Of a stretch of DNA of 64,000 nucleotides, positions 1,498-43,066 are shown piece by piece. The translations under genes and the position numbers were made by a program. The DNA comes from Patescibacteria group bacterium (GTDB taxonomy: Bacteria > Patescibacteriota > Patescibacteriia > Buchananbacterales > UBA6539): assembly GCA_028688055.1 (NCBI GenBank), contig JAQTYZ010000002.1, positions 4,256 to 68,255 of the forward strand, read 5' to 3'. The notes beneath the pieces were generated by a model that had not been told where the DNA came from, made no database searches, and worked only from the letters and a program-made list of their open reading frames with translations. Position 1 is the first letter of the stretch. Every line of letters begins with the position of its first letter.

Positions 1498-4400
1498 ATG
1501 AACTGGCTGCAAACCAAAATCTATCAAGCCGCCAAGGTAACAATGTTAACCAGCGTGTTAGCGTTGGTCGCTTTTGGTTTGCAATTAGCAAAATTTGAAC
1601 CAACAATTGCCGCCACCGGCATCAACCAACAATTAAACTACCAAGGTAAGTTGATGACGGTCAGTGGCGTGCAAGTTGCTAATACTAACTACAACTTCCG
1701 GTTCCGCATCTATAATGCTTCTTCCGGTGGTACGGTCTTGTGGACGGAACGGTGGACGGCCACTTCCACTCAGATTACCACGGTCAACGGAGTGTTCTCC
1801 GCTGCCCTTGGTTCGATTAATGCCTTGAGCAATGGTTCAATTGATTGGAACTCAGACAGTTTGTACCTCCAAGTTGATTTAGACGCTGACAATAATGGGT
1901 CCTGGGAAGAAAGCTTTGCTACTCGCAAACGTTTAACCTCCACACCGTATGCGTTCAACGCTAACCAAGTTAACGGCTTTAGCGCGACTTCCACCGCGGC
2001 GGTGGCCAACAATATTCCAGTCTTTGATTCTAACCTAACCTTGAACTTGTTTAATGGGGGAGTCAGTACTACGCGCGCCACCACCACCGCTTTATACTTC
2101 GTACCCCAAACCACGGCCCCTGACAGTCAAACCGGGAAACTCTACTTTGACTCAGGCAGTAACTACTTCAAATTCTACAATGGTCTCACTTGGGCTAGTT
2201 TAGGTGGTGGTGGAGCCGCTTGGGAATTATTCAACACTGACTCTGCTTTTATTACTCCCACCTCGTCCAAACCAATTTATGTCCCTGGTGCCTCACGGCT
2301 GGAAATGATTAATGCATCGACGACGAATGTTGATACCTTAACCGTCTATGGTAATAGTATCTACAACGGATTATCAACCTTCACTGATTTACGTACCACC
2401 AACCTTAATGCCTCAACGACGGCTAACTTCAATAATCTATTTATCTACGGTCTGGGCGATTTCACCGACCTGCGTTCAACCAACTTAAACGCTTCGGGCA
2501 CTCCGACCTTCGCCAATATTATTAACTACGGTACCTATACGGGCAACGGTGGTTTATCAATCTTCTCTGATCTGCGTCCGTCAATGTTGAATGCGTCGAC
2601 GACGAATGTTGACACCTTACGAGTTTACAATTCTCTCACCGTGCCTGACAGCAGTATCGCCTGGTCAAAATTAACTGGCATACCAACGTCAACCACTGAC
2701 CAATTGCCGGAAGGCGCGACTAACAAATATTACGCTAACTCTCTCGCTCGAGCCGCGCTATCAGCTTCCAGCCCAATTAGCTATGACTCGGGTACGGGAG
2801 CATTTAGTTTCCTCTATAACACAACAAATAATTGGACAGGGTTAAATACTTTCACCGACCTGCGTTCAACCAACTTAAACGCTTCGGGCACTCCGACCTT
2901 CGCCAATATTATTAACTACGGTACCTATACGGGCAACGGTGGTTTATCAATCTTCTCTGATCTGCGTCCGTCAATGTTGAATGCGTCGACGACGAATGTT
3001 GACACCTTACGAGTTTACAATTCTCTCACCGTGCCTGACAGCAGTATCGCCTGGTCAAAATTAACTGGCATACCAACGTCAACCACTGACCAATTGCCGG
3101 AAGGCGCGACTAACAAATATTACGCTAACTCTCTCGCTCGAGCCGCGCTATCAGCTTCCAGCCCAATTAGCTATGACTCGGGTACGGGAGCATTTAGTTT
3201 CCTCTATAACACAACAAATAATTGGACAGGGTTAAATACTTTCACCGACCTGCGTTCAACCAACTTAAACGCTTCGGGCACTCCGACCTTCGCCAATATT
3301 ATTAACTACGGTACCTATACGGGCAACGGTGGTTTATCAATCTTCTCTGATCTGCGACTCGCAAACGGATTAAATGCCTCTTCAACCGCTAACTTCTTAA
3401 ATGTGACATCCTTTGGCACGGTATCATCAACCGTTGCGCTAAACACCCAAGGCACCGGTCATTTTGGTAATAACGTAACCATTGACGGCAAGGTTGGCAT
3501 CGGCGCGACATCTCCACTTGCTAACTTAGAAATATATGACGGAACCGCGAGTAATATTTTAGGATTAGCAGTGAGAAGTAGCGGTATTGCTTGGACAAGC
3601 ACTCAACTACATCTTGGTCTTTATGACGAACGAGCATTAGCCGCAGATACGGGTCCAGCCATTGGATTTATCGCTCGCTATACGGCTAGCGCCTACACTC
3701 ATATGGCGGCGATAAAAATGGGCAAAGACAATGCGACGAGCGGAGAATATGGTGGCTATCTTTCGTTTATGACCAGAGCTAATGGTGTAGGAGAAGCAGA
3801 AAGAATGAGAATAACCAGCGCCGGTAATATCGGCATTAACAACACCGCGCCTGACGCTAAGTTGCACGTGACCGGTGATGCCAAAATAACGGGCAATGCC
3901 TCGACCACTGGTTGGTTTAATATTGGTACAACCAATCCGTTGGCAACCCTTGGCACATTGATCGGTGCCGGTGATTTATTTGTCGGACGAAATGCTACTA
4001 TCACCAACAACTTAACGGTTGATGGCACTACGTTGGTAGTTCAGGCTGATACTAATCGTGTCGGGATTGGAACGGCGAGTCCTTATGCCACTTTAGATGT
4101 CCAAGATACAATCCGTGCCACTAGGGCCGGTTATGATAATTTACAATATATTCAAATGACAGGAGATGGAGCTGGGAATTATCTAGTTGCTAATTCACAA
4201 GCAACTAATGATAAAGTTTTCTATATTGATGCTAAAAGCAATACAAATCCGGCCGGGGCAAATAATCAAATTCAGTTTCGAAATGGTTATACTCTATCGA
4301 CTAAAATGACTATTGATTCTTCTGGCAATGTCGGTATCAACAATACCGCCCCCGACGCCAAACTTCACGTCACTGGTGATGCCAAAATAACAGGTAATGC

Positions 4401-7400
4401 CTCAACTACCGGCTGGTTTAATATTGGTACAACTAATCCGTTGACAACCCTTGGTGCGCTCATTGGTGCTGGTGATTTGTTTGTTGGACGTAATGCCACT
4501 GTCACCAGTAACTTAACGGTTGACGGCACTACCTTGGTGGTTCAGGCCGATACCAATTATGTCGGTATTGACACAGCGAGTCCATTATCAAAACTTCATA
4601 TTAACAATGGGGCTAGTGGCAATATTTTATCTGTTGAAAGTAATGCCAGTGCCATTGATGAATATGCTGGATTAACACTGGCCAGTAAGGACTCAGGTGG
4701 GGCGTTATGGTATGGATCAGAAATTAGAAATATTAATACCGCTGGAAACCCTAGTTTTCTAAACCCAAGATTAGGTTTTTTCACTCAAGATTACTCCACT
4801 TATCTCCCGGCCAATCGAACAGAAAAAATGTCTATTCTAGGAAATGGTAATGTTGGGATTGGGACGGTGAGTCCAGGTAATAAACTGCAAGTTGTTGGAG
4901 CGATGGACGCAACTTATCCGGATTTGGTCGGACAAATAAATATTTCTTCAAATGATTCAGCGGCAATCAATAAAGGTGGCGTTTTGTCATTCGGCGGTAA
5001 CTATACCGGGACAACCAACACATCTTGGGCTACAATCTATGGTCGCAAAGAAAACTCGACGGCAGGCGATTATGCTGGCTATTTAGGCTTTGTAACAAGA
5101 GCGGTGGGAAATACCGGAACAGAAAAAATGAGAATAACCAGTGCAGGTGCTGTCGGTATCGGCAACACCGCCCCCGACGCCAAACTTCACGTCACTGGTG
5201 ATGCCAAAATAACGGGCAATGCCTCGACCACTGGTTGGTTTAATATTGGTACAACCAATCCGTTGGCAACCCTTGGCACATTGATCGGTGCCGGTGATTT
5301 ATTTGTCGGACGAAACGCGACGGTGACGAATAGTTTTATTGTTGACGCCGGAACTTTGTTTGTTGATTCTGGTAATAACTATGTCGGCATCGGGACGACG
5401 GCACCAGATGCAGGATTAACCGTAAACGGTTCAATCGATAGTATTTTACCATCAACCAACCGTCATTATTATAACGTTGCCGATTATAACTATACCGCCG
5501 GGGCGATTGTCGGGACAACAATCATTACGCTCCCTAAATACGGATCGTCCACGATGTTGCAAATCAAAATCAGCGGTTATGACTATAGCAGTGGTCGTGG
5601 CGCCTGGGAAATTATCATTGGTGGTTATAATTATTCCACCCACGACTGGTATAACACCAGCGTTGAATATAAAGGCACACCGCCGTTTACTCAAGTCCGC
5701 TTAGCAAATAATGGTACGAATGATTTAATTTTATTAGGAACAACGGCAACCAGTTGGGCCTACCCAAAAGTGGTGGTTACTGATGTTATGACGGGGCATA
5801 GCAATCTTAATAATTGGGGGACGGGCTGGTCAATCACAAACACAGCAACTGAACCTACTCTATTTAATGTCACCACTCTGACACCTAAAATGTTTATTGA
5901 TACTGCCGGCAAGGTTGGTATTGGCAATACCGCTCCCGCCTCATTATTAACCCTCGGGACGGCCGGCACGACGGCTGGCTCATTATCGTTAGCTGGTGCC
6001 ACTTCTGGTGTTATCACTCTTGCAACGGCGGCTGCGGCTGGGACGTACACGTTAACGCTGCCAACATCGGCCGGTAGTTTAAACCAGGTGTTAACTACCA
6101 ACGGCAGTGGGACGCTCTCGTGGTCAACAGGCCCCAGTACCCAGGCCTGGCAAAAGTACACCGGACTGGCATACCCAACGGATATTATCACGCCGACCAC
6201 TACCAATGCTTCAATTTTTATTTCAGGCAACGCGACGACCACCGGCAACATCACCATTACCCAGGCCGCCAACCCGGCCGGCAACCTGGCTTTCTCAGCT
6301 GCTAATCCTGTTATCAAAGCTTCCAGCTATATCACTGTCCCTGGCGGTATGTATGTCAGTGGTGGCACGCTTTATGCCCAAAACTCACTCAAAGCAAGGG
6401 GCGGTATCGCCGATGACCAGAACACCTACCTAACGCTGGCCGGCGGCACCAGCGGCTATTCTTATTTTTCCGGTAACGTCGGCATTGGCCAGACCGCGCC
6501 AGCAGCTTGGTTGGAAATTAACGGCGGCGCCACGACTAATGACTTGTTTAAAATTGCGACTACCAGCAATTCGGCAATTGTTTTTGTGGACAAAAGCGGT
6601 AATTTTGGCATTGGTACCACCACCTTCTTTAATAGCCCGGAAAACGGCAATCCCAAACTTGTTGTTGATGGTGGCTTAACCGGCGATGGCGGTATAATGT
6701 TGAACAGTGCTCAAGGTCGTTCAGCATATTTAGAATTTGCTAATGGTGCTAAAAGTGAATGGTATATATCCTCAAGAAATACTTTGATGGCGGGCGACAA
6801 TCATCAATTAAATTTTGATACTTACGTTAATGGTGGTCCAACAAACGTTTTGAGCTTAATGCAGTCGGGCAACATCGGCTTTGGTACGACCTCCCCGATT
6901 TATAATACCGTCACTCACCTTTCGAGTAGCGCCGCTAATCCGAATGATCGCCGAGCCAACTGGACCCGTGTTGACCTGTCTGGCAGCATTAGTAGTAATA
7001 TCTCTAATTACGGCCAATACATTTATCTATCAAATACCGGAGGAGCAACCGGAGGATTAATTGCAAATTCTTATTATGGGGGCAAATCAGAAGTAATCAA
7101 TTCTGGGGCAACAACGCCAACTGATGCGTCTTGGGGTCCAGCTCTAGCCAACTACGGCTATTATGGTCACGCCCAGTCGACCGGAACGGCCAATGCCGGC
7201 AGTGGTGGTAGCAATAACCGCTCGAACTATGGTGTCTATGGTCTTGCCGACGGCAATACCAATGGTTCAACCAGTAACTACGGCGTTTACGGTGATGCTT
7301 CTACAGGTGACCTAAATTATGGCGTTTATGCCCGGACCTGGGGCGCGGCTGGTCAAACCGGCTATGGTCTTTACGCAATGGACAACGCCAGCGCCGGTAC

Positions 7401-8835
7401 TAGTTATGCTGGCTATTTCCAAGGCAGTACCGCCAGCGATTACGTCATTTATATCAATAATATCGGTACGACTCCGGGTATTCACGACGATTCCGGCGCC
7501 GAGTTGACCGCGGCCGGAGCCTGGAATGCTGCGCCATCGTGGAGTTGGTATAAAAATCAAACCGCCGATCAGCCCACCGATTATTTGGAAAAACTGAGAA
7601 ATTTACCGGTCCACGCCTGGCAATATAAAAATGAAGTTGTCGATGGGAGTAACCGATATCTAGGCGATTCAAACGTTCACGTTTCACCATTCTTAGACGA
7701 CTTTAATAGTGCCTTTAGCATTGGGCCGGTCAATTCCGTAAACTATCAGGACTGGATTGGTGTCACGATGGGCGCGGTCAAAGAACTGGATAGCAATGTG
7801 TTACAGGTTCAAGATTCATTAAAATCTCTGGAGAGCAAAATCGGTTTAGACCAAGCCATTAACAATCCAATAGTTAATACCCCGGTCATCACTGTAATTA
7901 ATAACCCGGATTCCGAAATCAACACCTTAGTGGTTAATCAAGCCGCCACCTTTAATGGTACGTTATATGTTGTCGGTGAGGCCGGCTTTATGCACAAAGT
8001 TACCTTTGCCGACGACATTATTGTGGGCGGCAAAATTTATGCTTCCGAAGATCAGGCCGGTACCGCTGTTGTTGACGCCAACGCGACCTCAACGGAAATC
8101 ATTTTTAATTCCGAGTATGAAACCGTGCCAAAAATTGTCGCGAGCGTCGTCGGTGAAGATGATGACATTTGGGTCAATTGGAAAATCATCGGCAAATCAA
8201 CCAAGGGCTTCCGAATCTTACTTCAGCAGCCAATGGCCACACCGATTAGTTTCGATTGGATTGCCTTGCCGGTTAAAGGTGGCACAGCCGCGCCGGTGAT
8301 AAATGATTTAATAACCTCATTGACGTCAGTCGGCGCCAATATTCCAGTTGAACTTTGGGCTCAAGCTGCCGACCCCGACACCAGCGATTCTGAATTATCA
8401 TATTCCTGGAAATTGTCACCGAATATTGGAAAAATTGACGGCCAGTCTGGTCTCGTTTACTGGACAATTCCCGCTGATCAAATGCCATCAGCCGATACTG
8501 ATGTGACCGTTACCGTGACGGTTTCTGACGGTTCCCATTCGGCAACCAAATCAGCAACCATTAAAATCCTGGTACCGGAAAATAATACCGATGTCGCCAA
8601 TGATCAGCCAGCAACAACCGACACTTCGCAAACCACTTCTGATCAACCGACCGAAACTGGAAATAACTCAACCACCACCAACCAGGCTACCGTTGCTAAT
8701 GGGTGTACCGATAATACCGCGACCAACTATGATCTAACCGCGACTGACGATGATGGTTCGTGCCAATATCCGCCGCAGCCAACCAATAACTCCGACGCTT
8801 CAACAACGTCGGCCTCAACCACCCCAAGCAATTAA
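1498..8835 (+). CDS. giant (2445 aa) secreted or anchored tail-fibre-like surface protein with repeats and a Peptidase_S74-like intramolecular chaperone motif
   Basis: N-terminal signal/TM segment. Many (V/I)GIG(T/N)T(A/S)P...L.V.G tail-fibre-type repeats. The motif VNYQDWIGVTMGAVKELDSNVLQVQDSLKSLESKIG resembles the chaperone-of-endosialidase (S74) domain. Ig-like segment with TVTVTVSD. S/T/N-rich C-terminal tail. Confidence 0.85.
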   Translation: MNWLQTKIYQAAKVTMLTSVLALVAFGLQLAKFEPTIAATGINQQLNYQGKLMTVSGVQVANTNYNFRFRIYNASSGGTVLWTERWTATSTQITTVNGVFSAALGSINALSNGSIDWNSDSLYLQVDLDADNNGSWEESFATRKRLTSTPYAFNANQVNGFSATSTAAVANNIPVFDSNLTLNLFNGGVSTTRATTTALYFVPQTTAPDSQTGKLYFDSGSNYFKFYNGLTWASLGGGGAAWELFNTDSAFITPTSSKPIYVPGASRLEMINASTTNVDTLTVYGNSIYNGLSTFTDLRTTNLNASTTANFNNLFIYGLGDFTDLRSTNLNASGTPTFANIINYGTYTGNGGLSIFSDLRPSMLNASTTNVDTLRVYNSLTVPDSSIAWSKLTGIPTSTTDQLPEGATNKYYANSLARAALSASSPISYDSGTGAFSFLYNTTNNWTGLNTFTDLRSTNLNASGTPTFANIINYGTYTGNGGLSIFSDLRPSMLNASTTNVDTLRVYNSLTVPDSSIAWSKLTGIPTSTTDQLPEGATNKYYANSLARAALSASSPISYDSGTGAFSFLYNTTNNWTGLNTFTDLRSTNLNASGTPTFANIINYGTYTGNGGLSIFSDLRLANGLNASSTANFLNVTSFGTVSSTVALNTQGTGHFGNNVTIDGKVGIGATSPLANLEIYDGTASNILGLAVRSSGIAWTSTQLHLGLYDERALAADTGPAIGFIARYTASAYTHMAAIKMGKDNATSGEYGGYLSFMTRANGVGEAERMRITSAGNIGINNTAPDAKLHVTGDAKITGNASTTGWFNIGTTNPLATLGTLIGAGDLFVGRNATITNNLTVDGTTLVVQADTNRVGIGTASPYATLDVQDTIRATRAGYDNLQYIQMTGDGAGNYLVANSQATNDKVFYIDAKSNTNPAGANNQIQFRNGYTLSTKMTIDSSGNVGINNTAPDAKLHVTGDAKITGNASTTGWFNIGTTNPLTTLGALIGAGDLFVGRNATVTSNLTVDGTTLVVQADTNYVGIDTASPLSKLHINNGASGNILSVESNASAIDEYAGLTLASKDSGGALWYGSEIRNINTAGNPSFLNPRLGFFTQDYSTYLPANRTEKMSILGNGNVGIGTVSPGNKLQVVGAMDATYPDLVGQINISSNDSAAINKGGVLSFGGNYTGTTNTSWATIYGRKENSTAGDYAGYLGFVTRAVGNTGTEKMRITSAGAVGIGNTAPDAKLHVTGDAKITGNASTTGWFNIGTTNPLATLGTLIGAGDLFVGRNATVTNSFIVDAGTLFVDSGNNYVGIGTTAPDAGLTVNGSIDSILPSTNRHYYNVADYNYTAGAIVGTTIITLPKYGSSTMLQIKISGYDYSSGRGAWEIIIGGYNYSTHDWYNTSVEYKGTPPFTQVRLANNGTNDLILLGTTATSWAYPKVVVTDVMTGHSNLNNWGTGWSITNTATEPTLFNVTTLTPKMFIDTAGKVGIGNTAPASLLTLGTAGTTAGSLSLAGATSGVITLATAAAAGTYTLTLPTSAGSLNQVLTTNGSGTLSWSTGPSTQAWQKYTGLAYPTDIITPTTTNASIFISGNATTTGNITITQAANPAGNLAFSAANPVIKASSYITVPGGMYVSGGTLYAQNSLKARGGIADDQNTYLTLAGGTSGYSYFSGNVGIGQTAPAAWLEINGGATTNDLFKIATTSNSAIVFVDKSGNFGIGTTTFFNSPENGNPKLVVDGGLTGDGGIMLNSAQGRSAYLEFANGAKSEWYISSRNTLMAGDNHQLNFDTYVNGGPTNVLSLMQSGNIGFGTTSPIYNTVTHLSSSAANPNDRRANWTRVDLSGSISSNISNYGQYIYLSNTGGATGGLIANSYYGGKSEVINSGATTPTDASWGPALANYGYYGHAQSTGTANAGSGGSNNRSNYGVYGLADGNTNGSTSNYGVYGDASTGDLNYGVYARTWGAAGQTGYGLYAMDNASAGTSYAGYFQGSTASDYVIYINNIGTTPGIHDDSGAELTAAGAWNAAPSWSWYKNQTADQPTDYLEKLRNLPVHAWQYKNEVVDGSNRYLGDSNVHVSPFLDDFNSAFSIGPVNSVNYQDWIGVTMGAVKELDSNVLQVQDSLKSLESKIGLDQAINNPIVNTPVITVINNPDSEINTLVVNQAATFNGTLYVVGEAGFMHKVTFADDIIVGGKIYASEDQAGTAVVDANATSTEIIFNSEYETVPKIVASVVGEDDDIWVNWKIIGKSTKGFRILLQQPMATPISFDWIALPVKGGTAAPVINDLITSLTSVGANIPVELWAQAADPDTSDSELSYSWKLSPNIGKIDGQSGLVYWTIPADQMPSADTDVTVTVTVSDGSHSATKSATIKILVPENNTDVANDQPATTDTSQTTSDQPTETGNNSTTTNQATVANGCTDNTATNYDLTATDDDGSCQYPPQPTNNSDASTTSASTTPSN
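2461..3355 (+). repeat. perfect 390-bp (130-aa) tandem repeat, ~2.3 copies, inside the giant gene
   Basis: Identical blocks start at 2461, 2851 and 3241. The third copy diverges at ~3355. The encoded unit is FTDLRSTNLNASGTPTF...NTTNNWTGLNT. Confidence 0.9.
3838..5330 (+). repeat. three dispersed near-identical ~200-bp modules inside the giant gene
   Basis: Copies at ~3838-4060, 4327-4555 and 5161-5330. Each encodes NNTAPDAKLHVTGDAKITGNASTTGWFNIGTTNPL.TLG.LIGAGDLFVGRNAT with only a few nucleotide differences. Confidence 0.85.
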
Positions 8836-8842
8836 CTGAACA

Positions 8843-11299
8843 ATGTTAATGTTTGTTTTCCTAAAAAAATTGTTAGCCCAAATTGAAGACCTGCCAATCA
8901 AGCCCTGGCAACTATTGGCCTGGTGGTATTTTATTACTATTATCAGAACCCTCCTTGAAGCTTTCACCGACAGTGGGGGGCATTTAAGCGGCTTCCAGCC
9001 ATTTTTTCTTCAATATCCTGCCTACTACGCCGTGGCCTTCATGGGCATAATTATTATTTTAAAATTAATTACCAATGAAAAAATAGAAAAAATCGCCAAA
9101 GTCTTTTTTCTTTTTTCTTTCTTTATTTTTATTGGCCCAACTGTTGACGCGTTGTTATCAGCCTCAAATAATATAAGCTACATCAGCGTTGACAACTGGC
9201 CACTGATATTAAAATCGTATCTCACCATTGGCCTGGGTGGTATTTTTTTCCAAGGGACCACTAGTGGTATCAAATTCGAATTAATATTTGCCCTGCTATC
9301 AATTTTTCTTTACCTGAAATTGAAAGGTGTCACAATTATAAAATCACTGCTTGGCATTAGTAGCATCTATTTTTTTATTATTTCAACTTTTTTAATCACC
9401 ACCTACATTAAATTTTTTTATCTCTATTTTGGGCTTACCTTTAATTTTACCTCCCAATTTATTGGTTTATTTTGGACCATAATAACTACCATCAATACTT
9501 TAATATTTTTTTATTTATGGGATAAGACTAAATTAAAAAACTGGTTTTATGGCCTCGACTGGTTTCGTACGACCTTGGTCTGGCTGGTGATGACGTGGGG
9601 GATCGTTATCTATTTCAACCAAAGGTTCGACCCAGCACTTTGGCAATCTGATTGGCCAGCCGTCATTCTAAAAATGCTCGCCGTGACGATGGTCGGTTTT
9701 CTCATTTGGCAAATTATTAGACTAATCAACGATTTTGTCGATTTTGACTTTGATCATTATTCACAGTCGCCCAATTTATTAAACCAACTGCCAAAATCAG
9801 ATTTAATTACCGTCCTAATATTTTATTTAATTTTCTTTTTATTTTTGGCGCTGCAAATAAATTATACTTTTTTTGTCCTGCTGTTAATCTATATCCTCAT
9901 CGGCTATTTTTACAGCTGTAAACCAATATTTTTAAAACGCCATTTTATTTCAACCGCGGTTGCTTTAAGCCTAAATTATCTCCTCGCTTTTTGGGCCGGC
10001 TATGCGGCTTTTTTTACCACCGCTGACTCCCTAAATTTAGTGCCAAGAAACATCAGCCTGCTAATATTTCTCACCTTTGTCGCCGTGATCGGTTTTAAAG
10101 ACGTCAAAGATGAATTAAGTGACAAGCAACAAGGAGTAGTCACCTTGGTCACTCGCTACGGAGTTAATTGGGCCGCCAAAATTATTAGCTTAATGATTAT
10201 TTTAGTAATTCTTTTGGGCGGCTGGCTGTGGCACAGTTGGCCCTTATTAATCTTCGCGTTAATTGCCTTCGCCGCCGCTTATTATTTGACTAACGGTTTT
10301 ACAATTTTTAAAAATAAAATTGCGTTGGCTATTACTCTAATTTTATTTTCAATTGCCGCGCCCATCGTCGTTAGTTTTAATAAACCACTTCAAGCCTCAA
10401 TTGGTGCCATCAATTTAAAAAATGACGCCGGTTGGCATCCAACGGCCAATCAAGAAGCGTGGGATATTTCAAGCCTCTTAACCGATCAAAACGGCGATCG
10501 CTACTTTTTTTCCCAGAACTACTCGCTGTTAAACGGATCAACTCTAACTTTAATTGATTTACAGACTAAACAATATTACAAAGAATATTTTCCTGATGAG
10601 GGTTTCACGGCCATTACTAAAAATATCTTAGCAATCAACCAATATATTCCGGGCTACCATGGCAGCAATGTGTTTTATGACAATAACCGCGGCCCTTATA
10701 TTTTAAAAACCTATTTTGCCGATGGTTTACTTGAATTGACTGCCAAGGAAAAATCTAATGGCAATTTAATGGCGGCCACACCTAATGGCGTACTGAGTTT
10801 AAAAAATGGGGGAATGATTAATCAGTATTCACAACCAAATTTGGTAGCCAAAGGCCGCTTAATTTTTACCGGCCAAAAAATTATTAACATTTCTGGCCCA
10901 TTTTGGTTAGAACATCGTTGGGGTAATTTTACCGCTGACTGGCGCCAATTAAATTTAATCACCATTAATCTCGACGATGAGACAAAAATAATGATTGCTT
11001 ACCTGGGTTATGACAACGGCAGCCTGGCTTACGGTGGCCTTTTAAAAAATAACGAACTACAAAATTTTAGTCAGCTAACAATCCGGGTCGATCAAGACTG
11101 GCAAAGTCCAACCACCAACCAAAAGTGGCCAATCAAATTGAATTTAGCCAATCGCAATATTAATCTCGAGCTAGAAGCCATTTTACCAAATCAAGAAGCT
11201 CCCCAAAATACTTGGTCGGGACCAATGACGGTAACAGGCGAAGTTAATGGACAGCCAGTTGCTGGTTGGGCAAATTTTAGTGAGCTACGCCCCGACTAA
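8843..11299 (+). CDS. polytopic membrane protein: UbiA-like prenyltransferase core fused to a ~300-aa C-terminal soluble domain
   Basis: More than 12 hydrophobic segments. FKDVKDELSDKQQG is an Asp-rich motif like the second UbiA motif. The C-terminal domain (WLEHRWGNF...) is possibly CrtC/AttH lipocalin-like. Confidence 0.5.
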   Translation: MLMFVFLKKLLAQIEDLPIKPWQLLAWWYFITIIRTLLEAFTDSGGHLSGFQPFFLQYPAYYAVAFMGIIIILKLITNEKIEKIAKVFFLFSFFIFIGPTVDALLSASNNISYISVDNWPLILKSYLTIGLGGIFFQGTTSGIKFELIFALLSIFLYLKLKGVTIIKSLLGISSIYFFIISTFLITTYIKFFYLYFGLTFNFTSQFIGLFWTIITTINTLIFFYLWDKTKLKNWFYGLDWFRTTLVWLVMTWGIVIYFNQRFDPALWQSDWPAVILKMLAVTMVGFLIWQIIRLINDFVDFDFDHYSQSPNLLNQLPKSDLITVLIFYLIFFLFLALQINYTFFVLLLIYILIGYFYSCKPIFLKRHFISTAVALSLNYLLAFWAGYAAFFTTADSLNLVPRNISLLIFLTFVAVIGFKDVKDELSDKQQGVVTLVTRYGVNWAAKIISLMIILVILLGGWLWHSWPLLIFALIAFAAAYYLTNGFTIFKNKIALAITLILFSIAAPIVVSFNKPLQASIGAINLKNDAGWHPTANQEAWDISSLLTDQNGDRYFFSQNYSLLNGSTLTLIDLQTKQYYKEYFPDEGFTAITKNILAINQYIPGYHGSNVFYDNNRGPYILKTYFADGLLELTAKEKSNGNLMAATPNGVLSLKNGGMINQYSQPNLVAKGRLIFTGQKIINISGPFWLEHRWGNFTADWRQLNLITINLDDETKIMIAYLGYDNGSLAYGGLLKNNELQNFSQLTIRVDQDWQSPTTNQKWPIKLNLANRNINLELEAILPNQEAPQNTWSGPMTVTGEVNGQPVAGWANFSELRPD

Positions 11300-16866: not shown

Positions 16867-18969
16867 TTATATTAATAAACTCCAATCGGCATCAATACAT
16901 GTTAAATATAAATCGTCAGTTTCAATTGGGTAGCAAGAGTCATTATAAGTAAAATAAATCTCCCTTCCTTTATAATAGTTTCTCAAATGTAAAATTTTCA
17001 ATAGCCTCATATCAGTTGTAACTAATCTTAATTTTCTCACCCCCAATTTTTGGCAAAAATATTCAATGGCTAAAAATATACTAGCATTAATATATTCATT
17101 TAAAATCAGTATATCGGAAATAACAGCATTAGTTTCATTTTTCTCTAATGAAAAATAACCGATTATTTTGCTGCTTTTTTTAACAATAAATAAGTCCATT
17201 TTTTTTGGGGAATCTATTATTCTCCATTTTATAAATTCCCAATTTCGAACTACCCCAACATTAATTTCAGTTTTTTTACGTTCCCAAAGGCTGTTTATTT
17301 CTTTTTCACCTTCATCGGCACTAACTTTTTCGATAGTTAATTCACTCTGAATGATTTTCTCATTAAAGTTTAATATTTTAGGCCAACATAACCAGTATAA
17401 TCTTTTTTCAAGGAGATTAGATTTGATGGTTTTATTTGCTTGATGGGCGCCAGCAGCTGGAACCACTCTGCCATATACAGAATTCATTTTTTTATTGACA
17501 AACCCCCATGGCAAAAAATTACCTTGATCAATAAGCATACTAAAACAACTTTTAATAAACCCCTGATCTCGATATTGTTTTTCTATCCCCACCTCAGCAA
17601 TTTGATGAATAATTTGCTCCTTTGAATAGTATTTGATTTTGTGGCGTAAAACAGCAAATTGTCCGATTATTTCTTTTGTGCTATTCTCAGCAACAAGTAT
17701 CATTGAGCCCATTGGACAGTTCTTATATTTCCAAATCCATTTAGCATAATCCGTGGGATCAAAAATTTTATTGATAATATTGATCAGCCCCGCTTCATCG
17801 CCAGCTTGGTATGGCCTTATTTTGTAAAGGAGTTTTTCTAATTGTTGTTGGTTGTCAGCCATTTTTTTTGTGGCGAATGGCAACTGTTTTAATTTTTTAT
17901 AAAGCCATGGCGAATATTTTTTCAAAAAAATTCCAACGAGTCCCAACAACCTATCGATCAAAATTTTACTATTAATCCACATCGAAGCAGGCTGTTTGAA
18001 TTTCAATAAAAAATAATATAAATCCGGAGATAGTTTTTTTAGAGCAAGACCCCACCAACCAATAAATCGATCAATAAGCCATTTTGGGCAGGAGAATATT
18101 ATTTGCCTAATTAAATGATGATGATATTTTTTCAATTCTTCGTCACTCCAAACAAATTGAGCTGATGGACGGTTATTTAAATTAATTTGGTCAGCTTTGC
18201 TTAAGTTATCTTTCCATGTATTGTAAATTGATTGGCAATAATAAATTGGTTTTTGATAAGAAATAAAATGCACCATAATTGATTTTAGCTTTTTTGGTTC
18301 TATGTAATAATTCTTTAATTGATTATAATTCAGACAGTAGATAGGTGATAAATTATCCCACTCGTTGGCAAAATATAAACTCAGGATAAATTCGTCAATG
18401 TTACCAATATGATTTTGGTATTTAATTAGGAGAGATTTTAAATCATCAAATGTTTTGTGTGTTATGATTTCAGTATTGATAACAAGGAAGTTACAGCAAG
18501 GTATTGGCAAGTTGAGATTATATTTTTTCAGATTAGTTTGTTGGAATTTATTATTAAGCTCGTAAAATCTTAAAAAATGTTTCAATTTAACCTGCCAGAA
18601 GAAATACCGAATACCCGTTGCGGCTATTTTATTTGTGTCTAATAAATTATCTAATGAGGCAGTTACTATCAAGTCAGCATCCAGAAAAATTATTTTATCC
18701 CATTGCTTGAATTCTGATGTAAATAAATAGAGTTTACTCAATATGACTGCCGGCCAGCGCCCAACTAATTTTTCTGCCAATGGTTCGCATTTTTTGATTA
18801 AGATGCCTTTGTCTCTAAACCATTTCAAATCTTCTTCCGGCACTTCATGAGCTAACAGCATATAATCGCCTTGCCAACCAGAATTAAAATAAACACTGCT
18901 AAATAATTGCTTAGCAAAGTCTAAATATTTTTTATCGGCTAGAGTGACAAGAAGATTTTTTTTATTCAT
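16867..18969 (-). CDS. GT8-like nucleotide-sugar transferase fused to a C-terminal GNAT-like domain (700 aa)
   Basis: N-terminal LVTLADKKY...IIFLDADLIV (GT8/glycogenin-like DxD). Middle amphipathic repeats. C-terminal VGIEKQYRDQGFIKS is GNAT motif-A-like. Confidence 0.5.
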   Translation of the reverse strand: MNKKNLLVTLADKKYLDFAKQLFSSVYFNSGWQGDYMLLAHEVPEEDLKWFRDKGILIKKCEPLAEKLVGRWPAVILSKLYLFTSEFKQWDKIIFLDADLIVTASLDNLLDTNKIAATGIRYFFWQVKLKHFLRFYELNNKFQQTNLKKYNLNLPIPCCNFLVINTEIITHKTFDDLKSLLIKYQNHIGNIDEFILSLYFANEWDNLSPIYCLNYNQLKNYYIEPKKLKSIMVHFISYQKPIYYCQSIYNTWKDNLSKADQINLNNRPSAQFVWSDEELKKYHHHLIRQIIFSCPKWLIDRFIGWWGLALKKLSPDLYYFLLKFKQPASMWINSKILIDRLLGLVGIFLKKYSPWLYKKLKQLPFATKKMADNQQQLEKLLYKIRPYQAGDEAGLINIINKIFDPTDYAKWIWKYKNCPMGSMILVAENSTKEIIGQFAVLRHKIKYYSKEQIIHQIAEVGIEKQYRDQGFIKSCFSMLIDQGNFLPWGFVNKKMNSVYGRVVPAAGAHQANKTIKSNLLEKRLYWLCWPKILNFNEKIIQSELTIEKVSADEGEKEINSLWERKKTEINVGVVRNWEFIKWRIIDSPKKMDLFIVKKSSKIIGYFSLEKNETNAVISDILILNEYINASIFLAIEYFCQKLGVRKLRLVTTDMRLLKILHLRNYYKGREIYFTYNDSCYPIETDDLYLTCIDADWSLLI

Positions 18970-18970
18970 T
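18668..18970 (-). repeat. 303-bp perfect direct repeat, copy A (5' end of the GT8 paralog)
   Basis: Identical to 19668..19970 at an offset of exactly 1000 bp. Confidence 0.9.
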
Positions 18971-19969
18971 TTTTATTAATTTTTTTAAAAAGTAGTATGA
19001 TTTTGGATAATCTTTTTTAAGCCAAATACCAGTTAATCCGATTAAGAAGTCGAGTGACTCAATCAGCCGATATAACATCGCATAAGGAATAAAAAATACT
19101 CTTCGCATTTTTAACAGTAATTCGTATTTTTTTATTTCAAAATGACCCCAAATCTTGGTTGGCGGCAGGCGCAAGCTTAAATTAATTTCATCAGCACGAT
19201 CAAGGTTGTAGCGCCATATCTTATAAAAATAGGGGTGATAATCAATCGGTTTCTGGCAATTGAAAAAATTAATAATGATTGCCCTCGTTTTTTGTGGTTT
19301 TAGACAATTATATTTGATTAAGCTGAAAACATTAAGACAATAGAGCGGTGATATTATTTGTAGTTGTTTAATAAAATATAAAGTTAAGATCATTTCTTCA
19401 AGTGCTCCAAAAATAGTTTGATATTTATCTGCCAATTCTTTCAACCCAGTAAATGTATTTTTTTTTATAATAGTGGTGGAAAAGACGAAAACTCCACCAC
19501 TTAACATGAGGGAATTCAAGTCGTAAAGTTTTTCGCCTTCGCGCCTTATTTTTTTGTCAGCCTTATAAAAAAGATGTTTGAGACGGGATTTTTGCAGATA
19601 CAAGCTGTAGTTTGTAAAGCCAGCTATATTTTTAACTTCAAGTAAGTCATCTAGTGAAGCACAAACAATCAAGTCAGCATCCAGAAAAATTATTTTATCC
19701 CATTGCTTGAATTCTGATGTAAATAAATAGAGTTTACTCAATATGACTGCCGGCCAGCGCCCAACTAATTTTTCTGCCAATGGTTCGCATTTTTTGATTA
19801 AGATGCCTTTGTCTCTAAACCATTTCAAATCTTCTTCCGGCACTTCATGAGCTAACAGCATATAATCGCCTTGCCAACCAGAATTAAAATAAACACTGCT
19901 AAATAATTGCTTAGCAAAGTCTAAATATTTTTTATCGGCTAGAGTGACAAGAAGATTTTTTTTATTCAT
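18962..19969 (-). CDS. GT8-like nucleotide-sugar transferase; paralog of the upstream gene without the GNAT part
   Basis: The first ~100 aa are identical to the 700-aa protein. The same DxD motif is present (FLDADLIV). Confidence 0.5.
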   Translation of the reverse strand: MNKKNLLVTLADKKYLDFAKQLFSSVYFNSGWQGDYMLLAHEVPEEDLKWFRDKGILIKKCEPLAEKLVGRWPAVILSKLYLFTSEFKQWDKIIFLDADLIVCASLDDLLEVKNIAGFTNYSLYLQKSRLKHLFYKADKKIRREGEKLYDLNSLMLSGGVFVFSTTIIKKNTFTGLKELADKYQTIFGALEEMILTLYFIKQLQIISPLYCLNVFSLIKYNCLKPQKTRAIIINFFNCQKPIDYHPYFYKIWRYNLDRADEINLSLRLPPTKIWGHFEIKKYELLLKMRRVFFIPYAMLYRLIESLDFLIGLTGIWLKKDYPKSYYFLKKLIKNE

Positions 19970-19970
19970 T
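19668..19970 (-). repeat. 303-bp perfect direct repeat, copy B
   Basis: Identical to 18668..18970. Confidence 0.9.
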
Positions 19971-20285
19971 TACTCCGTTAAATACTTATTTTGCAATAAT
20001 AATCTTAAAGACGGGGTCTAGCTCACCAAACCAGGAATCCGTATGATAATTAATTATTGGTAGGAATATCTCGAAACTACCAATCATTTTTGGGCCAATT
20101 GTAACATCAACAAAAAAATCAACGGCCGGGCCTGGTAATACCGGATCGGGAAGCTTGAGTCTTAGGCCGTCATACAAGCGGTCTCTTAACTCACAACCAT
20201 CTTAAAGAAGTTAAAAGTTAGGACCAATATTGTTCATTTTAAAGGAAAAGTTTACTTTTTGTCCAACCTTAAATATAGAAGGTGT

Positions 20286-41704: not shown

Positions 41705-43066
41705 ATGGAGGAACAAAAAATTTGGCAAGCGGCACTTGGTGAACTCGAGCTAACTTTAAGTCGAGCTAACTTTACGACCTGGTTTAAAAACACCTTCATT
41801 ACCGAACGAACGGAAGAAATGGTAATTATTGCTGTACCCAACACTTTTACCAAAGCCTGGCTCGAAAAAAAATACCATTCGGCCATTTTGAGGGCCTTAC
41901 AAAAAATTACCAGCAACAAAATAAAATCAATCGTTTACCGAGTTGAAACAGTTTTAAAAATCCAGGAAGAGGTCGTGCTCGAAACTGCCGAAGCCCAGCC
42001 CCAGCTGTCACGGCCCGAGCCTGTCCCGTCAGTCGCGGCTAATGAATTTGGAATCAACCCGCGCTATCGCTTTGACAACTATGTTATTGGCAAGGGTAAT
42101 GAACTCGCTCAAGCGGCTAGTATCGCCGTCACCCAAAAACCAGGTAACGTTTATAACCCGTTATTCATTTATGGCGGCGTTGGCCTTGGTAAAACCCACT
42201 TAATGCAAGCCGTTGGCAACGAAATTTTAAAATTATGGCCGGGCAAAAAAGTTTTATATGTCTCCTGCGAAAAATTTACCAATGACTTTATTAAATCAAT
42301 CTCTTCCAACCGAGCGGACCGTTTTAAAGACACTTATCGCTCCGTTGATGTTTTACTCATTGATGACATTCAATTTTTAGCTGGCAAAGAGGGTACTCAA
42401 GAAGCCTTTTTCCACACCTTTAATGATCTCCACCAAGCCAATAAACAGGTAGTCATCACTTCGGACCGGCCGCCCAAGGCGATCCCGGCCCTGGAAAGCC
42501 GCCTAGAGTCTCGCTTTGAATGGGGGATGATTGCTGACATTTCCAGTCCTGACTTGGAAACCCGGGCCGCCATTTTAAAAACTAAATGCGCCGAAAAAGG
42601 CTATCGACTAAGTGACGAGGTTATCACTTATATTGCCACGAATATTCAAAATAATGTTCGCGAGCTAGAGGGCGCCCTCAATAAAGTAATGGCCTACAAC
42701 CAACTAAATGGCACGGAGCCAAACCTTGAAAACGTAAAAAAAATCATTGGTTCGCTAGCCGCTGGGATTCGTAAAAAATCAATTACCCCAAAACAAATCA
42801 TTAATATTGTGGCCGAATTTTATGATATTGCACTTGATGACCTACTGGGCAGTTGCCGCAAAAAAAACCTTGCGCTACCTAGGCAAATTGTGATGTACCT
42901 AATGCGCGAGGAGCTTAAAAGTTCTTACCCTTCAATTGGTTTAGAGATTGGTAAGCGCGACCACACTACCGCCATGCACGCTCACGTAAAAATTTCCAAC
43001 TGCATTGATGACGATGAAAAAATTAACCAGGATATTAAATTAATTAAAGAAAAACTTTACAACTAA
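41705..43066 (+). CDS. dnaA: chromosomal replication initiator DnaA
   Basis: N-terminus WQAALGELELTLSRANFTTWF. AAA+ GGVGLGKTHL. C-terminal DnaA-box binding domain. Confidence 0.95.
   Translation: MEEQKIWQAALGELELTLSRANFTTWFKNTFITERTEEMVIIAVPNTFTKAWLEKKYHSAILRALQKITSNKIKSIVYRVETVLKIQEEVVLETAEAQPQLSRPEPVPSVAANEFGINPRYRFDNYVIGKGNELAQAASIAVTQKPGNVYNPLFIYGGVGLGKTHLMQAVGNEILKLWPGKKVLYVSCEKFTNDFIKSISSNRADRFKDTYRSVDVLLIDDIQFLAGKEGTQEAFFHTFNDLHQANKQVVITSDRPPKAIPALESRLESRFEWGMIADISSPDLETRAAILKTKCAEKGYRLSDEVITYIATNIQNNVRELEGALNKVMAYNQLNGTEPNLENVKKIIGSLAAGIRKKSITPKQIINIVAEFYDIALDDLLGSCRKKNLALPRQIVMYLMREELKSSYPSIGLEIGKRDHTTAMHAHVKISNCIDDDEKINQDIKLIKEKLYN

Follow-up and report, generated by a model that had tools for sequence, protein, structure and literature searches.

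The window analysed in this study is a stretch of 64,000 nucleotides from an uncultured Patescibacteria group bacterium (assembly GCA_028688055.1, contig JAQTYZ010000002.1), and close to its beginning lies a giant gene that contains a perfect 390-bp tandem array. Tandem Repeats Finder described the array as an 897-bp run at 2460-3356, with a period of 390, 2.3 copies, 100% matches, 0% indels and a score of 1794, and it was the only large tandem array in the window. String comparison gave the same picture: unit 1 (2460-2849) equals unit 2 (2850-3239), and the first 117 bp of the unit equal 3240-3356. An earlier note on this DNA had described a perfect 390-bp tandem repeat of 2.3 copies inside the giant gene, which was borne out by both methods. 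Its positions (2461, 2851 and 3241, with an end at 3355) are the codon-phase form of the same array, and identity runs one base further at each end. It had also spoken of three identical blocks; two of these are full identical units, and the third is partial, with a length of 117 bp (0.3 unit).

Identity is lost sharply at both edges of the array (left, GTCTGGGCGA versus GGTTAAATAC; right, TCCGTC... versus ACTCGC...). Chance is no issue for the array, since only three other exact direct repeats of at least 30 bp (47, 119 and 304 bp) are present in the 64 kb. The whole array lies in frame within the open reading frame of the giant gene, with 390 bp corresponding to 130 codons, and its layout can be written as X-A-B-A-B-A-Y, where A encodes 39 and B encodes 91 residues (Table 1). 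A and the start of B are made of short repeats of 27-34 aa of the type F[TS]DLR..LNAS(T)T. Immediately upstream and downstream of the array lie further, degenerate copies, and the same type was also found in four homologues (P0002, P0007, P0015 and P0017). Within the upstream flank X, positions 2304-2340 show 89% identity to 2583-2619 and 2973-3009 (repeat family D5). In its make-up, the unit that was duplicated combines one fibre repeat with two short beta repeats.

Table 1. Features of the giant gene, its array and the glycosyltransferase gene pair (window coordinates)
Feature	Position	Strand	Description
Giant gene	1498..8835	+	2445 aa; identical to NCBI MDD2807212.1; putative MAT-like surface fibre
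N-terminal hydrophobic helix (probable signal peptide or membrane anchor, about aa 1-38)	1498..1611	+	Sequence MNWLQTKIYQAAKVTMLTSVLALVAFGL...; helix predicted by AlphaFold at residues 2-31
Core of conserved beta-rich N-domain (aa 38-107)	1609..1818	+	Match to NCBIfam NF053851 Bdello_MAT_N
X, upstream flank	2281..2459	+	Two degenerate 27-aa short repeats in the translation (LEMINASTTNVDTL..., FTDLRTTNLNASTTANF...)
A1	2460..2576	+	117 bp, 39 aa, FTDLRSTNLNASGTPTFANIINYGTYTGNGGLSIFSDLR; repeat family D3
B1	2577..2849	+	273 bp, 91 aa; one short LNASTTNVD repeat and one phage-tail-fibre-type repeat of about 50 aa (TTDQLPEGATNKYYANSLARAALSASSPISYDSGTGAFSF, about nt 2659-2835)
A2	2850..2966	+	Same as A1 at every base
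B2	2967..3239	+	Same as B1 at every base
A3	3240..3356	+	Same as A1; array stops after the FSDLR codons, followed by the next short repeat (LANGLNASSTANF...)
Older dispersed 300-bp repeats	3797-4096, 4298-4597, 5120-5419	+	76-80% identical
Divergent S74-like region (putative intramolecular chaperone/protease)	7537..7872	+	Aligned by position with S74 regions in three homologues (P0004, P0005, P0017)
GT8 glycosyltransferase paralogue	16867..18969	-	700 aa; shares 304-bp 5' block with the next gene
GT8 glycosyltransferase paralogue	18962..19969	-	335 aa; shares 304-bp 5' block with the previous gene

The giant protein is recorded at NCBI as 'MAG: hypothetical protein PHW95_01675 [Patescibacteria group bacterium]' (MAG, metagenome-assembled genome), and it forms a singleton cluster seen on one 201-kb contig. 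Its homologues are Patescibacteria proteins of 1.4-4.2 thousand aa, many of which contain PF13884 (Peptidase_S74) and some of which are named 'tail fiber domain-containing protein'; the best homologue is just 43-55% identical, and locally only. A Pfam scan of the whole protein and of five pieces gave nothing significant. The NCBIfam model NF053851 (Bdello_MAT_N) matched the whole protein with an E value of 6.2e-7 and the isolated N-terminus with one of 2.6e-9 (37.1 bits). Both matches lie under the curated cut-off of 60 bits, and the same model matched all 11 homologue N-termini tested (among P0002-P0023; best E value 5.6e-13). A phmmer search against PDB returned only structures of Bdellovibrio MAT fibres, as weak matches, namely 8ojn (E value 8.6e-6) and 8ond (Bd2133; E value 4.8e-4). 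The protein also carries long beta-rich repeats.

Given the N-terminal helix, the Bdello_MAT_N match, the PDB matches to MAT fibres and the homologues annotated as tail-fibre or S74 proteins, we conclude that the giant gene most probably encodes a MAT-like surface fibre, and the surface fibre suggested in the earlier note is supported by the same evidence. With the hydrophobic helix and the MAT-type N-domain, the product may be exported and displayed on the surface. The N-domain model, built from 11 sequences, had a mean predicted local distance difference test (pLDDT) score of 58.8, with beta strands over residues 46-146 and block-mean pLDDT mostly at 58-80. Foldseek comparison of this model with PDB gave insignificant immunoglobulin-like matches only, none at E<=0.001, in line with the report on the Bdellovibrio proteins, in which the MAT N-domain is said to be without structural homologue in PDB (PMC10769870).

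The same report describes the mosaic adhesive trimer (MAT) proteins as fibres of three chains on the cell surface, in which the N-domain is conserved, the tips can be exchanged and an S74 chaperone may be present or absent (Caulton et al., 2024; PMC10769870). The superfamily is characterised by a beta-rich domain of about 130 aa immediately behind the signal peptide, by an intertwined trimeric beta-helix or prism fibre, and by a C-terminal S74 chaperone/protease with SDxxxK or another tip domain. The giant protein appears to resemble the MAT proteins of Bdellovibrio bacteriovorus in its probable signal sequence, its conserved beta-rich N-domain and its long fibre of repeated beta modules, and S74 chaperone domains are found in most of the Patescibacteria homologues. 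In addition, both organisms need contact with other cells (for Patescibacteria, see bioRxiv 10.1101/2024.11.25.624915). Differences were also observed: besides the N-domain score of 37 bits against the 60-bit cut-off, the giant protein is two to three times longer and belongs to another host phylum, and the available part of PMC10769870 notes no perfect internal tandem array for the Bdellovibrio proteins. Our literature search found no paper tying Patescibacteria to S74 or MAT fibres. This apparent distant link between a Patescibacteria giant fibre and Bdellovibrio MAT is the more interesting by-product of the analysis.

A further difference from Bdellovibrio MAT concerns the S74-like part, which appears divergent, is not terminal and is followed by about 300 conserved residues. 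Near aa 2014, SWSWYK occupies the place of the S74 motif SDxxxK of the homologues (SDERLK, SDDRIK) with the Ser-x4-Lys spacing kept, and no Pfam match to PF13884 was obtained for the giant protein. The end of the gene (7537-8835, aa 2014-2445) comprises the S74-like region and then the conserved residues (AATFxGTLYV...WIAL...), together with cysteine-containing GCTDxxAxNY motifs. Such a long segment after the S74-like region is unlike phage and Bdellovibrio S74 proteins. If the S74-like region cleaves, the freed part would be large.

Unit residues 67-125 align with a repeated motif of about 35-50 aa. When 1.84 billion representative proteins were scanned in full with HMMER, 873 of them matched at E<=1e-3, and a single protein could have up to 27 matched stretches; alignments of the motif were made to P0040 and P0042. 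One of the motif-bearing proteins, P0042, contains 12 PF03406 (Phage_fiber_2) repeats plus S74. The minor tail protein PHROG 2952 matches the fibre motif with an E value of 7e-4, and other motif-bearing proteins match PHROG tail and structural families. This part of the unit represents a widespread fibre repeat type that occurs in tandem runs in hundreds of fibre-like proteins. The repeated motif is what the unit shares with phage tail-fibre arrays (PF03406 and the unnamed TTDxLxEGxxNxYY repeats). In contrast to these, the 130-aa unit is composite in make-up and had no match to the PF03406 model at E<=10, and the gene is located on a chromosome and not in a phage, in a window that holds dnaA, polA and the genes for an SMC-family ATPase and a class A penicillin-binding protein.

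Traces of sequence exchange were found elsewhere in the giant gene. The older 300-bp repeats contain two perfect patches, one of 119 bp shared by copies 1 and 3 (3874-3992 = 5197-5315) and one of 47 bp shared by copies 2 and 3 (4345-4391 = 5167-5213). In the three-way alignment, copy 3 is the same as copy 2 until about column 100, after which it equals copy 1 (columns 95-213). With the nearest relative switching along the alignment in this way, the repeats form a gene-conversion mosaic.

A similar case was found in two adjacent GT8 glycosyltransferase paralogues. They lie at about 12-20 kb, within an island of glycan-synthesis genes with a low GC content (29-32%). A 304-bp perfect direct repeat (18668-18971 and 19668-19971, offset exactly 1000) spans the start codon and the first 101 codons of both genes. 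Residues 1-102 of the two proteins are 100% identical, and the rest is only about 37% identical; such a sharp mosaic suggests gene conversion. The pair forms an R-M-R arrangement, that is, '1.3 copies' of a period of 1000, which is the kind of structure proposed below as the precursor of the array.

Long exact repeats also recur in homologous giant genes from independent assemblies. In the gene of P0030 (locus L001, GCA_964567135.1), positions 7274-8353 hold a 417-bp tandem array with 2.3-2.6 copies and 89-95% identity, a 446-bp exact tract and an enclosed 863-bp perfectly periodic stretch. This array appears to have the same architecture as that of the window at a slightly older stage. In the gene of P0021 (L002, GCA_964350585.1) a 466-bp exact repeat with an offset of 1131 was found, and in that of P0033 (L003, JGI 3300029288) a 238-bp exact repeat with an offset of 657. 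This recurrence implies that module duplication with patchy homogenisation is a normal way for these genes to evolve.

We propose that recombination really did duplicate a module of 130 residues in the part of the shaft nearest to the membrane, in the MAT-like surface fibre of a Patescibacteria cell; this is the most likely of the readings weighed here, with about an even chance. The earlier note had offered a very recent duplication as one of three alternatives, without choosing among them. The copies are indeed identical, but this account is too simple: a single tandem duplication gives integer copies, and therefore at least two homology-driven events are needed to reach 2.3 perfect copies; moreover, merging by an assembler can also give identity. 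Since homology-driven changes move by whole units, the extra 0.3, which is the third A, would pre-date the duplication. In the first step, a gene-conversion tract of about 117 bp would make two short-repeat units identical and yield A-B-A (1.3 copies, with the two A's 390 bp apart). In the second step, unequal crossing-over or long-repeat replication slippage between the identical A's would duplicate the 390-bp A-B and give A-B-A-B-A. Later exchanges could add or remove whole units of 130 codons, with the frame kept.

Several observations are consistent with this path. The repeat is exact and in frame. Conversion between short-repeat units would yield A-B-A, and tracts of such a size are visible in the genome: the 119-bp perfect tract, about the size of A, lies within 76-80% identical repeats of the same gene, and the GT8 pair shows the R-M-R arrangement. 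Comparable structures are carried by homologous genes, and the second half of the unit is of a repeat type seen in tandem runs in many fibre-like proteins.

The same array was also considered in terms of what an assembly can say about it. We compared the k-mer sets of versions of the locus with 0.3, 1.3, 2.3, 3.3, 4.3 and 6.3 copies. At k<=117 the sets are the same for every version of at least 1.3 copies. At k=119-508 the 1.3-copy version differs, and from two units upward the k-mer sets are all the same; here 2.3 copies is the shortest sequence with all k-mers of any array of at least two units. A short-read assembler is thus unable to count the units from sequence, and 2.3 is its natural minimal output. 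The copy number written in the assembly cannot be trusted. The reads do, with certainty, contain a perfect direct repeat of 117 bp whose copies lie 390 bp from each other.

There is a substantial, though less than even, chance that the count or the perfect identity is an assembly error. Either the true structure is A-B-A (1.3 copies) and the loop was walked once too often, or an array of more than 2.3 copies, or of slightly differing copies, was written as the minimal merged path; with the same degree of doubt, the '2.3 perfect copies' would be a property of the assembly and not of the organism. Bubble merging in assemblers can make slightly differing copies look identical. The k-mer comparison fits this explanation, as do the MAG source and the fact that the protein is known from one contig only, and giant genes full of repeats are known to be difficult for assemblers (bioRxiv 10.1101/2023.11.21.568195). 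However, assemblers invent no k-mers, so that at least the 117-bp repeat is real. The 201-kb contig passes through the array and through the 304-bp and 119-bp exact repeats, which means that information to resolve such repeats existed, and homologues carry similar arrays with 89-95% identity, which short reads are able to resolve. The assembly artefact mentioned in the earlier note may thus account for the number of copies or their perfect identity, but not for the 117-bp direct repeat.

Another explanation is that the array is real but static, in other words a one-off recent duplication that became fixed and is selectively neutral. Units would then no longer be gained or lost, and the length of the fibre would play no part. 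The copy number of only 2.3 is far below the 5-17 near-identical B repeats of Aap/SasG (PMC4261907), and no variant alleles were found when metagenome and genome contigs were searched with the unit. Most other internal repeats of the giant gene are 76-80% identical, so duplicates can simply age here. Nevertheless, we consider this unlikely. Three 117-bp and two 390-bp perfect tandem direct repeats are a strong substrate for recombination or slippage, and instability is expected of such long perfect direct repeats. In addition, a non-integer perfect copy number needs more than one event without intervening point mutation, and the conversion tracts elsewhere indicate active recombination.

The recombination-made duplication itself faces several objections. 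The contig with the array comes from a MAG, and the copy number, even the perfect identity, is what loop traversal by an assembler would yield whatever the truth. No close relative, which might show alleles of another length, was found in genome contigs, metagenome contigs or the protein collection: the exact B-A junction was absent from the genome contig collection, the exact giant protein was not on record in the contig index, and the unit gave one distant 29-residue match in metagenome contigs and none in genome contigs. The single-sequence AlphaFold model of the array region (aa 262-661) reached a pLDDT of 31.7 and was unusable. Finally, flanks and unit show no homology in register; the assumed diverged precursor of the third A is therefore not visible, and the two-step history is a reconstruction.

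Some other origins could be ruled out. A homogenised older 390-bp array does not agree with the flanks, which are out of register with the unit. The repeat pair of a diversity-generating retroelement would have copies differing at adenines, and the copies here are identical at every base; reverse transcriptase was not systematically searched for. A phage or prophage tail-fibre gene is inconsistent with the surrounding genes, which belong to chromosomal housekeeping and glycan synthesis. Frame-shift phase variation at a simple-sequence contingency locus was rejected because the unit of 390 bp is 130 codons within the open reading frame. Accordingly, the phase variation proposed in the earlier note found no support: copy changes keep the frame, and size variation alone would be possible. 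Of the slipped-strand or recombinational process suggested there, slipped-strand mispairing of the short-repeat type is inapplicable to a unit of 390 bp, and what has to be considered is recombination, or replication slippage at long repeats.

With regard to the genomic surroundings, an 818-aa fusion protein is encoded directly downstream of the giant gene (8843-11299). It combines a UbiA-type prenyltransferase (E value 3e-19) with lipocalin-like domains (Lipocalin_9, CrtC N-terminal), which is an unusual combination beside a surface fibre. The dnaA gene is located at 41705-43066, and the cumulative GC-skew minimum lies near 42-44 kb. As dnaA coincides with the turn of the GC skew, the window probably spans the chromosomal replication origin, at a distance of about 35-40 kb from the giant gene. 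The window gave no match in scans for Rfam families and tRNAs, and a promoter and terminator scan was uninformative.

As copy changes keep the frame, they could not switch the gene on and off, and only the length of the proximal shaft could change. According to PMC10769870, the model of Bd3182 measures about 550 Å for about 780 residues and the tip of Bd2133 measures 150 Å for about 370 residues. Scaled from these Bdellovibrio figures, a 130-residue unit would add roughly 5-9 nm.

Copy number varies from strain to strain in the staphylococcal and streptococcal repeat proteins. The nearest functional analogues of the array are the near-identical 128-residue B repeats of Aap/SasG and the rod-like Sdr B repeats. 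The number of B repeats in SasG and Aap is 5-17, each of 78 + 50 residues, and those of Sdr proteins behave as stiff rods (PMC4261907). The likeness to Aap/SasG, and also to alpha C/Rib and Sdr B, lies in long (about 128 aa there, 130 aa here), in-frame, near-identical tandem units of surface proteins (here a putative one); near-100% identical in-frame units, as in Aap/SasG and alpha C/Rib, were found here over 897 bp (period 390, 100%). In these proteins the copy number sets the length of the rod, which projects the distal binding part. However, there is no sequence or fold relationship with these proteins, only 2.3 copies are present here, and a monomeric LPXTG rod there stands against a phage-tail-fibre-like, probably trimeric fibre here.

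It could be speculated that Patescibacteria episymbionts have relatives of the MAT fibres with which Bdellovibrio recognises its prey, and that they tune the reach of the fibre tip by recombinational gain and loss of 130-residue modules. In that case the array would represent one of several alleles of a fibre for host attachment that varies in length, fed by the same conversion that made the 119-bp and 304-bp tracts. We regard this extended scenario as quite improbable at present.

A perfect in-frame module repeat in a surface-fibre gene is an ordinary and well-known kind of feature. The more certain lesson of this study is that short-read MAGs give perfect tandem repeats longer than the reads at the minimal copy number compatible with the k-mers, and hence gene lengths and claims of recent duplication need a check of the reads before they are interpreted. 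To our knowledge, every cultivated member of this lineage lives attached to other microbes, and little is known of the molecules by which its members recognise their hosts. Should the array prove real and variable, it would mark an attachment fibre of adjustable length in this lineage, and it would also link the fibres of Patescibacteria to those of the predator Bdellovibrio.

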